A DNA stretch of 17,352 nt from an uncultured bacterium. GTDB lineage: Bacteria; Lernaellota; Lernaellaia; Lernaellales; Lernaellaceae. The translations under genes and the position numbers were made by a program. A model generated the notes under the pieces. The model was given only the letters and a program-made list of their open reading frames with translations, made no database searches and was not told where the DNA came from. The stretch covers positions 1-17,352 of the forward strand of contig CAZHPN010000134.1 of assembly GCA_964534375.1 (NCBI GenBank), written 5' to 3'. Below are positions 13,009-17,352 of this stretch, piece by piece (within the stretch, counting starts at the first letter, position 1; every line of letters starts with the position of its first letter).

Positions 13009-13037
13009 TTGACACGCTCCAATCGGTCGCCTACACT
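13009..13037 (+). promoter_or_regulatory. Sigma70 promoter of the RHH-sat operon
   Basis: TTGACA (13009-13014), 17 nt, TACACT (13032-13037). Confidence 0.8.
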
Positions 13038-13060
13038 CCAATCACACTCCAAATGGAGTG
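13014..13060. promoter_or_regulatory. Putative operator array (ACRCTCCAA x3 plus an inverted copy)
   Basis: acgctccaa 13014-13022, acactccaa 13033-13041 and 13044-13052, plus palindrome cactcca-aa-tggagtg 13045-13060, all overlapping the promoter region. Confidence 0.65.
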
Positions 13061-13074
13061 CCAACGGAGCCTCG

Positions 13075-13308
13075 ATGGACAAAGTGACGATCAAAATCCC
13101 GCGGCAACTCTATGAGAAGATTCAACTTCTGATTGACGATTCGGGATTTTCGAGTCCGACCGAGTTCATCGTCTACGTTCTTCGCGATTTGATCGGCGGA
13201 CAACTCGCCGGGCGGCAAGCGGCAAAAAAAGAAGACAAATCTCAAGAACTTACGACCGAGGAAGTGGCGGCGATCAAGCAACGTCTGCGCAGCCTCGGGT
13301 ATCTGTAG
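13075..13308 (+). CDS. CopG/ribbon-helix-helix transcriptional regulator with RLxxLGYL tail (77 aa)
   Basis: GGAG RBS; beta-strand KVTIKIP, helix, GFSSPTEFIVYVLRD; tail EEVAAIKQRLRSLGYL. Confidence 0.85.
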   Translation: MDKVTIKIPRQLYEKIQLLIDDSGFSSPTEFIVYVLRDLIGGQLAGRQAAKKEDKSQELTTEEVAAIKQRLRSLGYL

Positions 13309-13329
13309 ATTAGAAAGGACCGGCGCAAC

Positions 13330-14487
13330 ATGATTAAGGCCCACGGTGGACGATTGGTGGATCGCTTTGTTAAGGGAGACATCCGCGAGGCTCTGCTCGA
13401 AAAAGCGGCCCAAATGCCGAAAATGACGCTCAACGAGCGCGAAATCGCCGACGTCGAGATGCTTTCGTGCGGCGCGATGAGCCCGCTCGAAGGCTTCATG
13501 ACCCGCGACGACTACAAGAGCGTTGTGCACGATATGCGCCTGGCGTCGGGCCTGGTGTGGCCATTGCCGATCACCCTCGCGCCCAAGGCCGGCGACGATC
13601 GCAAATTCCAAATCGGGCAGCAGCTCGCGCTCGTGGACGACGGCGGCCGCATCGTGGCAGTCATGGATGTCGAAGACGTTTACGACGTCGACCACGCCGA
13701 AGAGGCCGCGAAATGTTACCGCACGACCGACCCGGCGCACCCGAGCGTCGCGTATCTGCGCAATTACGGCACGACGTATCTGGGCGGGCCGATCACCGCG
13801 CTGAATAAGGTCGAGCACGACGACTTCAACGGATACCGCCTCGAGCCGAAAGAAACGCGCGTGCTGTTCAAGACCAAAGGCTGGAAAACGATCGTCGCCT
13901 TCCAGACGCGCAACCCGATCCACCGCGCGCACGAGTACCTGCAAAAATGCGCGCTCGAACAGGTCGATGCGCTGCTGATCCATCCGCTGATGGGCGCGAC
14001 GAAAAAAGGCGACATCCCTGGCGACGTGCGCATGGCGTGCTACAAGGCGCTCGTCGAAAATTACTACTGCCCCGACCGCATCGCGGTCAGCATTTTCCCC
14101 GCGGCGATGCGCTACGGCGGCCCGCGCGAGGCGATCTTCCACGCGCTGGTCCGCAAAAACTACGGCTGCACGCACTTCATCGTCGGCCGCGATCACGCCG
14201 GCGTCGGCACCTACTACGGCTCGTACGACGCGCAAAACATCTTCGCCGAATTTTCGCGCGAAGAGATCGACATCGCGCCGATGATGTTCGAAAACTCGTT
14301 CTTCTGCAAAAAGTGCGGCAACATGGCGAGCGCCAAGACCTGCCCGCACGGCGCGGAAGATCGTGTGAATCTCTCGGGCACGAAGGTCCGCGAAATGCTG
14401 GCGCGCGGCGAGCGGCCGCCGGCCGAGTTTACGCGGGCCGAGGTCGCGGACGTTTTGATGAAGTATTACCAGAGCGAAAACGCCTGA
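13330..14487 (+). CDS. sat: Sulfate adenylyltransferase (Sat-type ATP sulfurylase)
   Basis: HGGRL, SPLEGFM, FQTRNPIHRAHE, YGGPREA, VGRDHAG, Zn site CKKC...CPH, SGTKVR. Confidence 0.97.
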   Translation: MIKAHGGRLVDRFVKGDIREALLEKAAQMPKMTLNEREIADVEMLSCGAMSPLEGFMTRDDYKSVVHDMRLASGLVWPLPITLAPKAGDDRKFQIGQQLALVDDGGRIVAVMDVEDVYDVDHAEEAAKCYRTTDPAHPSVAYLRNYGTTYLGGPITALNKVEHDDFNGYRLEPKETRVLFKTKGWKTIVAFQTRNPIHRAHEYLQKCALEQVDALLIHPLMGATKKGDIPGDVRMACYKALVENYYCPDRIAVSIFPAAMRYGGPREAIFHALVRKNYGCTHFIVGRDHAGVGTYYGSYDAQNIFAEFSREEIDIAPMMFENSFFCKKCGNMASAKTCPHGAEDRVNLSGTKVREMLARGERPPAEFTRAEVADVLMKYYQSENA

Positions 14488-14504
14488 CGAACGAGGAGGG
14501 CGCC

Positions 14505-15884
14505 GTGAAAAAGATGATCGTCATCGGCTTGGATTGCATGGAACCGAGCCTCGTGTTCGAGCAGTTTCGCGACCTGATGCCGAATGTCCGCCGGCTGACC
14601 GAAGCCGGCGTGCACGGCAAAATGCGCAGCACGGAGCCGCCGATCACCGTGCCGGCCTGGACCTCCATGATGACCAGCAAAGACCCGGGCCAGCTCGGCG
14701 TGTACGGCTTCCGCAACCGCGCCGATTACTCCTACAAGGGTCTGTATTTCGCCAACGACGATTACATCCATGAAAAACGCGTCTGGAACTATCTGGCGCG
14801 CCGGCGCGTCAACACCTTCGCGCTCAGCGTGCCGCAGACGTATCCGCCCAAGCCGATGCGCGGCACGCTCGTCGCGGATTTCCTGACGCCCGACAAAAAC
14901 GTGCCGTGGACATATCCGATCGAGGCGGCGCACGAGATCGATTTTCTGGCCGACGGCGACTACATCATCGACGTCAAGGATTTCCGCACCGACAACAAAG
15001 ATTGGCTGATCGAGCAGATTTACAAAATGACCGAGCGCCGCTTCAAGGTGTTCCGCGAATTCGTGCGGCGCGGCGAACATGAATTCTGCATGATGGTCGA
15101 GATGGGCGTCGACCGGATGCACCACGCGTTTTGGCGGCATCACGACGTGAAGCACCGGCTGCACGAGCCGAACAACAAATATCAATATGTCATTCGCGAT
15201 TATTACAAATACCTCGACGCCCGCATCGGCGAGCTGCTCGAGGTCGTCGACGCCGACACGGCGGTGATGATCGTTTCCGATCACGGCGCCAAGGGCATGG
15301 TCGGGGCGATCTGCGTCAACGAATGGTTGATGCAAAAGGGCTACCTCGCCCTCAAAGAACCGCTGAAGGGCCCGGGCAAGCTGAAGATGGACAACATCGA
15401 CTGGTCGCGCACCAAGGCCTGGGGCGAGGGCGGCTACTACAGCCGCATTTTCTTCAACGTCAAAGGCCGGGAGCCGGAAGGCATCATCGCTCCGGCCGAC
15501 TACCCAGCCTTCCGCGACCGCATCCAAAAGGATTTCGAAGAGATCGCCGACGAAAATGGCAAGAACATCGGCACGGTGGTGCTGCGGCCGGAGAACATCT
15601 ACCGCGAAGTGAAGAACGTGGCGCCGGATCTGATCGTTTATTTCGGCAACCTGGACTGGCGCAGCGCAGGGCAGATTGGCACGGGCAAGATCCATATTTT
15701 CGAGAACGACACCGGCCCCGACGACGCCAACCACGCCGCGTACGGCATCTTCGCGCTGCGGCTGCCCGGCGGGCAAAAGGCGCAGGCGCTGCCGGAATAC
15801 TCGATCTACGACGTGGCGCCGACGATCCTGAATTATTTCGGCGTCGAAATTCCGGCCGATTTCATCGGCAAGAGCGTGTTATAG
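14505..15884 (+). CDS. Alkaline phosphatase superfamily protein (nucleotide pyrophosphatase/phosphodiesterase-like)
   Basis: GAGGAGG RBS + GTG start; IGLDC, STEPPITVPAW (Thr nucleophile position), DRMHH, SDHG, DDANH, DVAPTIL; no signal peptide. Confidence 0.9.
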   Translation: MKKMIVIGLDCMEPSLVFEQFRDLMPNVRRLTEAGVHGKMRSTEPPITVPAWTSMMTSKDPGQLGVYGFRNRADYSYKGLYFANDDYIHEKRVWNYLARRRVNTFALSVPQTYPPKPMRGTLVADFLTPDKNVPWTYPIEAAHEIDFLADGDYIIDVKDFRTDNKDWLIEQIYKMTERRFKVFREFVRRGEHEFCMMVEMGVDRMHHAFWRHHDVKHRLHEPNNKYQYVIRDYYKYLDARIGELLEVVDADTAVMIVSDHGAKGMVGAICVNEWLMQKGYLALKEPLKGPGKLKMDNIDWSRTKAWGEGGYYSRIFFNVKGREPEGIIAPADYPAFRDRIQKDFEEIADENGKNIGTVVLRPENIYREVKNVAPDLIVYFGNLDWRSAGQIGTGKIHIFENDTGPDDANHAAYGIFALRLPGGQKAQALPEYSIYDVAPTILNYFGVEIPADFIGKSVL

Positions 15885-15895
15885 AATGGGAACAT

Positions 15896-16030
15896 TAAAC
15901 ACAGAGGGCACAGAGAATTGCACGGAGGACACAGAGGCGGCCGGAACGCGTTGCGCGCGTTCGCGCGACGCGTTCCGGCCGCGCTCTTCTCTGTGCTCTC
16001 TGTGTCTTCCCTCTGTGCTCTCTGTGTTTA
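15896..16030. repeat. Long palindromic element with CACAGAG-family arms and a 21-bp inner GC stem
   Basis: Outer arms taaacacagagggcacagag...ctctgtgctctctgtgttta; inner stem gcggccggaacgcgttgcgcg/cgcgcgacgcgttccggccgc (15937-15982). Confidence 0.9.
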
Positions 16031-16058
16031 AAATTCCATACACAAAAAGGGACGCAAT

Positions 16059-16661
16059 ATGAAAAAGGGTTTCACGATTTGGTTCACGGGCCTCTCCGGC
16101 TCCGGCAAGTCGACGCTCGCCACGATGGTCGAAGAGACGTTGCTCGAGCGCGGCCTGAACGTCGAAGTGCTCGACGGCGACGTGGTGCGCACCAACCTGA
16201 GCAAAGGGCTGGGTTTCTCGAAAGAGGATCGCGACATCAACATCCGGCGCATCGGCTTCGTGTGCGAATTGCTGACGCGCAACGGCGTGGTCGCCATCGC
16301 CGCGGCGATCAGCCCGTACAAGGAAATCCGCAACGAGAACCGCAAGCGCGTCGGCCGCTTCGTCGAAGTGTACTGCGAGTGCCCGATCCCGGTGCTCGCC
16401 GAACGCGACATCAAGGGCCTGTACAAGAAAGCGCTGGCCGGCGAGATCAAGAATTTCACCGGCGTGTCCGACCCCTACGAGCCGCCGGACCACCCGGAGA
16501 TCGTCTGCCGCACCGACCAGGAGTCGACGCGGCAATCGCACGACCGGATCGTCCGGACGCTCGAACTCATGGGCTACGTCCCGGCGGCCGAAGGCGCGGA
16601 CTACAGCCCCGAAGAAGAAGAAAAAATCAAGAAACGCCTGAAAGACCTCGGGTATCTCTAA
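16059..16661 (+). CDS. cysC: Adenylyl-sulfate (APS) kinase with C-terminal RLxxLGYL extension
   Basis: [46 protein letters not shown]; tail [19 protein letters not shown]. Confidence 0.97.
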
Positions 16662-16703
16662 AAGACCATCAGAGCGATTAGCAGATGCCGGTTCAGGCGA
16701 CCG

Positions 16704-17065: not shown

Positions 17066-17352
17066 ATGATGAAGAACATGCGTTTGGCAATCCTAGTGCT
17101 CGCGGTCTTCGCGAGCCTGTTGGCGTTTGCGTGCGCCAGCACCTCTAGCAGCAGCAGCGCCGCCGCGCCGGATGACGACGACGACACGTCGCCGACCGTC
17201 GACGACGACAGCTCGCCGACCGTCGACGACGACGACGACAACGACGACGACTCCTCGCCGCCGGTTGACGACGACAACGACACTGTGGTCGACGACGACG
17301 ACGACAACGACGACAACGACGACAACGACGACAACGACGACAACGACGACAA
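17066..17352 (+). CDS. Asp-rich lipoprotein, N-terminal part (runs off the window; absent from the ORF track)
   Basis: AGGAGG RBS; MMKNMRLAILVLAVFASLLAFA-C lipobox; then Ser-rich segment, DDDDDTSPTVDDDSSPTV... and (DDN)n. Start is 17066 or 17069. Confidence 0.85.
   Translation, partial: MMKNMRLAILVLAVFASLLAFACASTSSSSSAAAPDDDDDTSPTVDDDSSPTVDDDDDNDDDSSPPVDDDNDTVVDDDDDNDDNDDNDDNDDNDD
17171..17352 (+). repeat. Coding low-complexity repeats (DDDxSPxV units and GACGACAAC 9-mers)
   Basis: Directly visible; a perfect gacgacaac array runs to the window end. Confidence 0.9.

Follow-up and report, generated by a model that had tools for sequence, protein, structure and literature searches.

Why should two proteins of one operon, unrelated in fold, end in the same short helix at the stop codon, when the enzymes encoded between them have no such end? 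The question is raised by a 17,352-nt stretch of DNA (the window), in which four genes follow one another on the forward strand in the order RHH-sat-AlkP-cysC, an operon that is kept across phyla in the related loci compared. The initial annotation, made from the sequence, had proposed that the common end is a portable peptide on the RHH protein and on CysC, which binds the tail-less AlkP enzyme in trans.

The first gene (13075..13308; alternative start GTG at 13084) encodes a probable CopG-type RHH protein of 77 aa, likely an autorepressor. Its match to RHH_1 (E 0.0038, 17.6 bits) lies under the Pfam cut-off of 20.5, that to CdrS (E 8e-5) far under the CdrS cut-off, and the NikR RHH gave an E of 0.52. 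Relatives are named CopG/Arc/MetJ in their source records and CopG in the Atlas clusters, and an Atlas search with the RHH protein returned only its own CopG-named clusters. In 19 of 19 genome loci the RHH gene is the first of the operon. A promoter with the −35 box TTGACA at 13009 and the −10 box TACACT at 13032 precedes it (promoter/operator 13009..13070, forward strand), and four half-sites with a spacing of 10-11 bp (CACTCC at 13034, CACTCC at 13045, GGAGTG at 13055 and GGAGC at 13066) overlap the −10 box of this promoter of the RHH gene itself, forming a putative operator. Both TTGACA and TACACTC were invariant in 6/6 aligned orthologous promoters, as was the first half-site, and similar half-sites occurred downstream of it. 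The genome-wide count of the operator palindrome was not above chance (2 observed, ~9 expected); a second copy, on contig C107, was dropped, as it was surrounded by sensor-kinase ORFs. No toxin gene was found in the operon, which otherwise holds only sat, AlkP and cysC, nor among the neighbours in related loci.

The second gene, sat (13330..14487), encodes an ATP sulfurylase (PUA_2, E 2e-99; ATP-sulfurylase, E 4e-53), and the third (14514..15884) a cytoplasmic AlkP-superfamily enzyme of the NPP/Phosphodiest type (PF01663, E 2.9e-43). Inspection of their ends bore out that both lack the tail, AlkP stopping at ...IGKSVL. The last gene, cysC (16059..16661), encodes an APS kinase of 200 aa (PF01583, E 3e-61; NCBIfam PRK00889, 278 bits with a cut-off of 244), which carries the P-loop GLSGSGKST, aligns over 172 residues to 5cb6, and is the sole APS kinase found in the genome, with one PF01583 match. 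The spacer between AlkP and cysC contains an unstranded tandem repeat (15988..16026; 9-bp unit, 3.9 copies), which probably lies outside the tail system. In a public RNA-library run, three contigs match stretches of the AlkP and cysC genes exactly; RNA cannot be separated there from carried-over DNA, so these contigs are not counted as evidence of expression.

The last 20 residues of the RHH protein (13246..13305, forward strand) comprise a hydrophobic position, an S/T cap, an acidic turn, an amphipathic helix and the motif L-G-Y-L, and they match the add-on tail of CysC (residues 181-200; 16599..16658, forward strand) at 10 of 20 positions in register, both proteins stopping one residue past L-G-Y. 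That a common C-terminal module is present was thus confirmed, and it proved to be distinctive: of the 52,573 six-frame ORFs in the genome that end at a stop and are 60 aa or longer, only CysC shared at least 9/20 residues with the RHH tail. The shorter pattern [RK]L[RKH]xLGY had 11 occurrences in a set of 64,321 six-frame ORFs with a 50-aa minimum, ten of them no more than 2 residues from the stop.

CysC holds two such helices in tandem. That is, the add-on tail follows the native last helix, which is itself of the L..MGY type (...LELMGYV; residues 163-174, 16545..16580, forward strand; predicted by AlphaFold2 at 157-170). Canonical CysC proteins end at the native helix, the alignments to 5cb6, 2gks and 8a8h ending at residues 173-174, and the solved structure 8a8h ends in ...KLGYL. 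A profile of 26 tails gave nothing significant against the PDB sequences (best E 0.11, a designed protein), its only related row being the native end of a CysC at E 0.67, and this search found no solved structure showing the tail. When longer proteins with the RHH tail were sought (query region 38-77), none of 17 candidates scored, which counts as weak evidence. A literature search of main texts found nothing relevant on an LGY tail or a PAPS-AlkP module.

The tail is well conserved among relatives of both hosts. Nearly all of the best RHH relatives (119 of the 120 best, from a family of 421 clusters) end in L..LGY plus 0-3 residues, the linker varying in length, and the add-on tail was present in all of the 120 best of 7,881 CysC hits. 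Conservation covers the whole 14-residue helix and the cap upstream of it, and the last 0-3 residues are variable. A census of tail hosts, as proposed in the initial annotation, yielded 13 credible tail-bearing ORFs from 15 regex matches in this genome: nine Sulfatase-fold enzymes, one of them fused to radical SAM/SPASM, one Phosphodiest enzyme, two RHH paralogues and CysC. The initial annotation placed tails of this kind on many sulfatase/AlkP-superfamily proteins, and this holds both for the ten in this genome and for the relatives, where 19 of 20 long tail-bearing ORFs (20 fetched of 23 matches at E≤1e-3) were Sulfatase or Phosphodiest. In these sets the tail is almost confined to enzymes of the AlkP fold and to proteins encoded in the same operons. 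Besides cytoplasmic proteins, the tail terminates lipoproteins and multi-pass membrane enzymes. A long form (I/M/V at −9, no Pro at −11/−12) was seen in 11 of 11 tailed AlkP-fold ORFs that have neither a TM nor a signal segment and is the form found on RHH and CysC; a short Pro-capped form was seen in 11 of the 18 that do have one.

The AlkP enzyme belongs to a very large family (12,894 representative clusters at E≤1e-3), and the fold of one of its homologues is nearest to ENPP1, Xac NPP and PhnA. With residues counted from 14499, which makes the ATG residue 6, T50 (14646-14648) is the putative nucleophile; of 112 homologues, 93 have Thr at this position and 9 have Ser, and D12, D261, H262 and H412 are conserved in the same set. 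Xac NPP has counterparts of both the T50 motif and the SDHG motif in the alignment, T50 falling on the Thr of its LTFPN stretch, which we take to be the nucleophile of that enzyme. When AlkP and CysC residues 158-200 were modelled together with ESMFold2, from our own alignments, the complex scored 0.84 (runs 0.85, 0.79 and 0.84), as opposed to 0.02 for the best of 3 controls and 0.00 for the control in which an unrelated protein took the place of AlkP. The mark passed by this score was also passed by 116 of 157 solved complexes and by 2 of 215 mismatched pairs, a calibration that is approximate where own alignments are used. The runs shared at least 51% of their contacts, with a partner pLDDT of at least 57. 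In the model the CysC tail lies in the active-site cleft of AlkP, and the invariant Y199 contacts I49, T50 and V51. The CysC side of the interface (residues 179-182, 186-187, 189-191, 193-194 and 196-200) includes all of the conserved tail positions, i.e. Y182, E186, E187, I190, R193, L194, L197, G198 and Y199, and some 20 of the 30 residues on the AlkP side, T50 included, are conserved in at least 64 of the 112 homologues. The proposed docking of the CysC tail on the tail-less enzyme in trans therefore passes a controlled in-silico check. The predicted site beside the nucleophile Thr is more in keeping with a plug, gate or anchor than with the PAPS channel of the initial annotation, and a tail lying over the nucleophile, as modelled, would block catalysis, which is awkward for a simple channelling complex.

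Comparison of loci indicates that the tail does move between proteins, as its proposed portability implied, for it is found in related operons on RHH, on CysC, and on AlkP itself or fusions. In most of the 19 genome loci, two of which are archaeal, a tailed RHH gene is followed by sulfate-activation and AlkP-fold genes; an AlkP-fold gene was visible in 16 of them, L024, L025 and L030 being truncated or without one in range. On contig C325 of the present genome, a second tailed RHH paralogue directly follows a tail-less Phosphodiest gene. Natural fusions of the AlkP homologues comprise sat-AlkP, CysC-AlkP-tail, AlkP-PK-sat and AlkP-PK-tail, and CysC-RHH-tail fusions occur at 5 loci. At 17 loci the AlkP orthologue is tail-less and the add-on tail is on CysC, whereas at 9 loci of a sister clade (support 96/90) the tail is on AlkP, in 5 cases as a CysC-AlkP-tail fusion and in 4 on AlkP alone; no tailed CysC or RHH gene was found within 4 kb of these nine. 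No locus combined the two arrangements, a complementarity that is not statistically independent, because the switch of the tail between CysC and AlkP maps to a single event on the tree, and that comes from loci collected with RHH or AlkP queries, with the ascertainment bias this entails. The expected pairing of a tail-less AlkP with a tagged CysC thus stood at the 17 loci and failed at 9 others, where the same AlkP orthologue lies beside a CysC without the add-on tail, and docking by CysC is therefore not obligatory. At 10 Planctomycetota-type loci only RHH carries the tail, CysC having no add-on, and the place of AlkP is taken by another protein, short (303-305 aa) and sulfatase-like. The cis-tailed or fused AlkP genes L032, L033, L036 and L056 have unrelated housekeeping or regulatory genes as neighbours.

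The same features could arise if the tail were an amphipathic helix sticky enough to pack on the protein that bears it or on further copies of the tail, with no specific site on AlkP; it would then tetramerise RHH dimers on the four-site operator and stabilise CysC and AlkP oligomers. The spacing of the four half-sites does call for cooperative binding of several RHH dimers, and the RHH antitoxin PrpA tetramerises via its C-terminal domain (PMC9731233). Moreover, AlphaFold2 modelled CysC alone with an ordered tail beside the native L..(L/M)GY helix (linker pLDDT 83, linker and tail 83-90), and the tail could therefore simply pack in cis by that helix. This also qualifies the flexible linker of the initial annotation, which stands for a cis-tailed AlkP homologue (linker 43-68, ahead of a tail at ~84) but may be less floppy in CysC. 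The AlkP core itself has a nearly invariant internal W-L-x3-G-Y-L helix, and helix-Gly-Tyr-hydrophobic may therefore be a general capping motif. However, a generic oligomerisation helix would be expected on many folds, not on AlkP-fold enzymes and their operon partners only; the controlled model sites the tail in the AlkP cleft and loses it when AlkP is replaced; and the tail switches between CysC and AlkP in sister clades. On balance we regard self-association as unlikely.

It appears less probable still that the tailed proteins are recruited to a common scaffold, e.g. TPR proteins, with neither the AlkP domain nor the tail as the partner, and we consider this very unlikely. TPR genes do lie close to RHH at two loci (L015 and L017), but the window has none, AlkP itself passes the modelled docking test, and one partner cannot serve all tails, because they occur in the cytoplasm as well as on exported and membrane proteins. 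The extreme C-terminal position after a linker also recalls degrons and encapsulation peptides, so that the tail might mark its hosts for coordinated turnover or for a compartment. Against such a tag stand the conservation of the 14-residue helix and cap rather than of the variable last 0-3 residues, and the presence of the motif on lipoproteins, multi-pass membrane enzymes and cytoplasmic proteins alike. Compartment targeting, an alternative of the initial annotation, had to be rejected, as the BMC shell (PF00936) and encapsulin (PF04454) families had 0 matches in the genome, which is 94.4% complete, and were picked up in the control genomes; proteolysis, its other alternative, fits poorly. 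Taken together, a degradation or sorting tag is barely plausible.

We therefore slightly favour, at little better than even, a portable docking or plug helix for AlkP-fold enzymes, given in trans by CysC and probably by RHH too. The tail would be a helix of ~20 residues that binds the AlkP-fold active-site cleft. It starts with a hydrophobic anchor, the S/T cap and the acidic turn, which lead into an amphipathic helix whose one face bears I, L and L, and it has the invariant Gly-Tyr. Many sulfatase- or phosphodiesterase-type enzymes carry it in cis on a flexible linker, and the tail-less AlkP of this operon would receive it from its pathway partner CysC. Docking would tether CysC to AlkP while covering or gating the catalytic site, and substrate or product may displace the tail. 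The putative RHH autorepressor, which would sit on the four operator half-sites over its own promoter, probably provides its tail to AlkP as well; by occupying the same site, it would make repression track the state of the enzyme.

A further reading, distinctly unlikely in our judgement, is that the tail Tyr serves as a pseudo-substrate or a true acceptor in the AlkP-fold site, for example by reversible O-sulfation or phosphorylation with PAPS from the tethered CysC. If so, one peptide switch would act as the gate of a very large family of uncharacterised enzymes, as a tether for the PAPS supplier and as a signal of enzyme state to the RHH repressor, i.e. a metabolite-sensitive plug acting in cis in thousands of sulfatase-like enzymes and in trans in partners, in bacteria and archaea. 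More generally, the docking-helix reading points to an undescribed way to wire an enzyme to a partner, and perhaps to a regulator. Operons and natural fusions link the AlkP family to PAPS synthesis in many phyla, archaeal ones among them, and a cleft-binding peptide would give a handle on its function through peptide probes, co-crystals and inhibition assays. It would also offer a simple route by which an enzyme controls its own repressor, and would account for the end helix shared by thousands of annotated "sulfatases".

Relationships of this kind between enzymes and regulators have precedents. In the CymR-CysK and TnrA/GlnR-glutamine synthetase pairs, a metabolic enzyme reports its state by binding a transcription factor, and TnrA and GlnR bind glutamine synthetase through their own C-terminal tails; the protein families differ from those of the present operon, in which RHH-AlkP binding is putative. 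Mnt likewise has an RHH domain followed by a short C-terminal helix, which tetramerises dimers by joining them on a multi-site operator, but this helix is not known to be shared with enzymes of the operon that Mnt controls. The AlkP enzyme resembles the NPP/phosphonoacetate hydrolase branch (2gsn, 4gtw, 1ei6) in its fold, Thr nucleophile motif and SDHG metal motif; it differs in its low identity (~14%), its cytoplasmic location and its setting in PAPS-synthesis operons, with fusions to sat, CysC, a pyruvate-kinase barrel or a glycosyltransferase.

In the RHH type II antitoxins PrpA and ParD (PMC9731233), a small N-terminal RHH domain that binds DNA leads into a flexible C-terminal region, and this region binds the product of a downstream gene in an operon under the antitoxin's own control; the present RHH protein would have the same layout. 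Here, however, the putative partner is a metabolic enzyme and not a toxin, and the C-terminal region is a single short helix common to CysC and AlkP enzymes. The closest parallel is that of CysK, for which PMC5562914 describes insertion of the CysE C-terminal tail into the active site, mimicry of this tail by the CdiA-CT toxin, and coupling of complex formation to metabolite levels through occupancy of the site. As in that case, unrelated proteins with a common C-terminal tail would reach into the cleft of one sulfur-metabolism enzyme and so anchor a complex, which here is modelled. In comparison with that description, the enzyme here has an AlkP/NPP fold instead of being PLP-dependent, members of the enzyme family carry the tail in cis as well, binding is modelled, and a 14-residue helix with Gly-Tyr and 0-3 variable residues takes the place of a terminal Ile whose carboxylate is read. 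With none to three variable residues after the invariant Tyr, the terminal carboxylate cannot be what recognition relies on. The tail may thus work like CysE-CysK docking without being a member of that system, and it would then be the second case, after CysE-CysK, in which insertion of a tail into an active site forms a complex in sulfur metabolism.

The putative ribbon-helix-helix (RHH) protein of 77 aa (13075-13308) and the APS kinase CysC (16059-16661), both encoded on the forward strand, end one residue past an L-G-Y motif. Aligned in register, their last 20 residues share 10 identical positions. This confirms the common C-terminal tail reported in the initial annotation. Among the 52,573 stop-terminated six-frame ORFs of the genome, CysC alone matched the RHH tail at 9 or more of the 20 positions, and the core motif occurred 11 times in 64,321 ORFs, in 10 cases at most 2 residues from the stop. 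The two proteins encoded in between on the same strand, Sat (13330-14487) and a cytoplasmic AlkP superfamily enzyme of the Phosphodiest type (ATG at 14514, end at 15884; hereafter AlkP, residue 6 being the ATG), had been described as tail-less, and neither has a C-terminus of that kind. CysC contains the motif twice. That is, its native last helix (residues 163-174), at which canonical CysC proteins stop, already shows an L..MGY pattern, one solved archaeal enzyme ending in KLGYL, and a 10-residue linker joins this helix to the add-on tail (residues 181-200), which is the second copy. The linker had been called flexible; disorder is predicted for the linker of a cis-tailed AlkP (pLDDT 43-68) but not for that of CysC (pLDDT 83). 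A tail-like, nearly invariant internal helix, N-x-W-L-x3-G-Y-L, is also found in the AlkP core (15318-15347, residues 274-283). Considering this helix and the native last helix of CysC, caps made of a helix, Gly-Tyr and a hydrophobic residue may be a recurrent motif.

The tail is conserved in both families, and its range of hosts is narrow. The RHH family comprises 421 clusters; among the best 120, 119 end in the tail, which is separated from a conserved RHH domain by a linker whose length varies, and all of the 120 closest of 7,881 hits to CysC carry the tail, with an 18-residue sequence that is almost invariant. The genome has further tail hosts: nine proteins of the Sulfatase fold (in one case fused to a radical SAM/SPASM maturase-like domain), a single Phosphodiest protein, and another small RHH protein paralogous to the first (31% identity, E 3e-8). 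This paralogue, 64 aa long (L009, 2353-2634), comes immediately after a tail-less 767-aa Phosphodiest ORF on contig C325, the pair spanning 34-2634. A profile built from 26 tails and run on 21 genomes (this one and 20 relatives) gave matches in 18, with 10-12 per genome within the same family. The long matches at E<=1e-3 (20 of 23 fetched) comprised 19 Sulfatase or Phosphodiest proteins, three with a radical SAM fusion, and one protein without a Pfam match. In the fusion on contig C256 (1026-3458, L008), the sulfatase-fold part joined to the radical SAM/SPASM maturase-like domain bears the long, cytoplasmic form of the tail at its end, an arrangement conserved in relatives (L084, L087; ORFs of 1093 and 1140 aa). 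In all 11 AlkP-fold hosts devoid of membrane and signal segments, the tail is of a long form, in which the residue nine positions ahead of the Tyr is hydrophobic; the RHH protein and CysC carry this form too. Of the 18 hosts with such a segment, 11 have a shorter, Pro-capped form. The existence of two forms therefore removes the apparent problem of one tag serving two compartments. Literature searching retrieved no published account of the LGY tail or of a PAPS-AlkP module.

The four genes lie in a window that is the complete 17,352-base contig C134 of a 6.3-Mb draft genome (completeness 94%); the remainder of the contig contains sucCD, SnoaL-like, DUF2961 and nuclease genes but no glycan genes. 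Since the genome has no APS-kinase match other than cysC, and only a single weak PAPS_reduct match (45 bits, on contig C137) and one Sulfotransfer_3 match (on contig C82), the operon may be the sole source of PAPS in the cell. The 174-bp spacer between the AlkP gene and cysC contains short tandem repeats of 8-9 bp units (15947-16026), for which length variants were seen among metagenome contigs. At 17066-17350, an open-ended gene encodes a protein that has a signal peptide and an extended poly-Asp/Asn tract (58 copies of a GAC repeat). In a metatranscriptome-library run, contigs identical to 15590-15809, 16230-16470 and 16629-16700 were found, which is compatible with expression of the AlkP/cysC region but is no proof of it.

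Querying with the RHH protein yielded 19 genome loci, from Planctomycetota, unclassified bacteria, a Methanofastidiosum and one record titled Halobacteria, and the RHH protein was tailed in all 19. In most of them the RHH gene is followed by sat, AlkP-fold genes and, in bacterial loci, cysC; two archaeal loci have cysD/cysN in place of sat, and three (L024, L025, L030) are incomplete or lack an AlkP-fold gene in the stretch examined. Homologues of AlkP form 12,894 representative clusters at E<=1e-3 and include natural fusions (P0332, P0363, P0247, P0249, P0281, P0354) of the types sat-AlkP, CysC-AlkP-tail, AlkP-pyruvate kinase barrel-sat, AlkP-pyruvate kinase barrel-tail, AlkP-GT2 (glycosyltransferase) and nucleotidyltransferase-AlkP. 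The pyruvate kinase barrel could serve ATP regeneration. No classical sulfotransferase was found in the operons of AlkP homologues, and the AlkP-fold enzyme may itself be the user of PAPS or APS. Furthermore, five metagenome loci encode CysC, an RHH-like domain and the tail as one polypeptide (L043, 1897-2649; L058, 5336-6055; L062, 5348-6070; L068/L069, 5206-6057; ORFs of 240-284 aa). Kinase and repressor domain are thus physically linked in some lineages, which suggests a route by which CysC acquired its tail.

Upstream of the RHH gene, a TTGACA box is followed 17 bases further by a TACACT box, and four half-sites (CACTCC, CACTCC, GGAGTG and GGAGC), spaced by 10-11 bp, overlap the -10 box. 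Six orthologous promoter regions all keep the promoter and first half-site unchanged, and each then continues with related half-sites. The palindrome is not over-represented genome-wide, and the case for an operator therefore rests on conservation in place. Judging from these half-sites, the RHH protein looks like an autorepressor.

The placement of the tail was surveyed at loci carrying a complete AlkP orthologue, found via RHH or AlkP queries. AlkP was tail-less next to a separate CysC with the add-on tail at 17 loci, and next to a CysC lacking it at nine; five loci had CysC-AlkP-tail fusions and four had AlkP-tail alone. No locus of the survey combined a tailed AlkP with a tailed CysC or RHH protein. 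A maximum-likelihood tree groups all nine AlkP genes that are cis-tailed or fused into one clade, sister (support 96/90) to a seven-member clade that contains the AlkP of the window. The complementarity between AlkP and CysC is real, yet it counts as a single relocation event, because the nine genes group together. At 10 further loci, of Planctomycetota type, CysC lacks the add-on tail and the middle enzyme is different. Beside the same AlkP orthologue, one CysC clade (L067, L070, L072-L075) has another conserved extension of ~30 residues after the native LGYL, which is not the tail.

ESMFold2 was run on AlkP (alignment of 112 sequences) with CysC residues 158-200 (alignment of 106). The complex scored 0.84 (0.85, 0.79 and 0.84 in three runs), against 0.02 for the best of three controls; of the reference cases, 116 of the 157 solved complexes and 2 of the 215 mismatched pairs reached the score mark, counts that apply only roughly because own alignments were used. 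The runs share at least 51% of contacts, with a partner pLDDT of at least 57. On CysC, the modelled interface consists of exactly the conserved tail positions (Y182, E186, E187, I190, R193, L194, L197, G198, Y199, L200). On AlkP, it comprises T50, G70, F71, R72, P116, F128, L129, P131, D158, F162, R163, R206, H209, G311, G312, Y313, R388 and D408, and corresponds to the most conserved surface of the family, ~20 of 30 residues being conserved in at least 64 of the 112 homologues. Tyr199 is predicted to contact I49, T50, V51, G70, F71 and Y313. T50 aligns with the Thr of the LTFPN stretch in Xanthomonas NPP, which we take to be the nucleophile, and SDHG aligns with SDHG; H209 and the SDHG residues are presumably metal ligands, as in NPP enzymology. 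The model supports, but does not demonstrate, the trans docking on AlkP proposed in the initial annotation. The shared tail itself is confirmed, and its interpretation is supported in part. In the AlphaFold2 model of a cis-tailed homologue, the tail helix (pLDDT ~84) comes after a disordered linker, consistent with docking of the tail on the core of the same protein.

Taking together what was computed (conservation, host range, linkage, fusions, relocation and the complex model), a docking helix with the CysC tail acting in trans is the most likely mechanism. The tail would be a portable helix for the active-site cleft of AlkP-fold enzymes, many of which carry their own on a tether. The AlkP of the window has lost its tail or never had one, and CysC would supply it. 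We infer that such docking occurs in the cell, keeping the PAPS-making kinase on AlkP while covering or gating the catalytic centre, possibly with displacement of the tail by ligands. By inference, the RHH tail might use the same cleft, so that repression would track the state of the enzyme.

Against docking, CysC lacks the add-on tail at the nine loci with the same AlkP and at the 10 Planctomycetota-type loci, and a tail placed over the AlkP nucleophile, as modelled, would bring no obvious benefit for channelling. It is possible that the tail simply packs in cis beside the native helix, because CysC alone is already modelled with an ordered tail; the tail could also be a self-associating helix, which would account for cooperative binding at the four half-sites.

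The docking helix would be a variant of a known mechanism, a shared C-terminal tail entering an enzyme's active site, on a very large uncharacterised family. By its architecture, the RHH protein resembles RHH antitoxins such as PrpA, in which an RHH domain and a linker precede a short end that binds a partner whose gene lies downstream (PMC9731233). The nearest known parallel to a tail in the AlkP cleft is CysE, whose tail docks in the active site of CysK and is mimicked by an unrelated toxin (PMC5562914). Unlike in that system, the residues after the Tyr vary here, and the tail system is therefore not a strict member of the CysE-CysK type.
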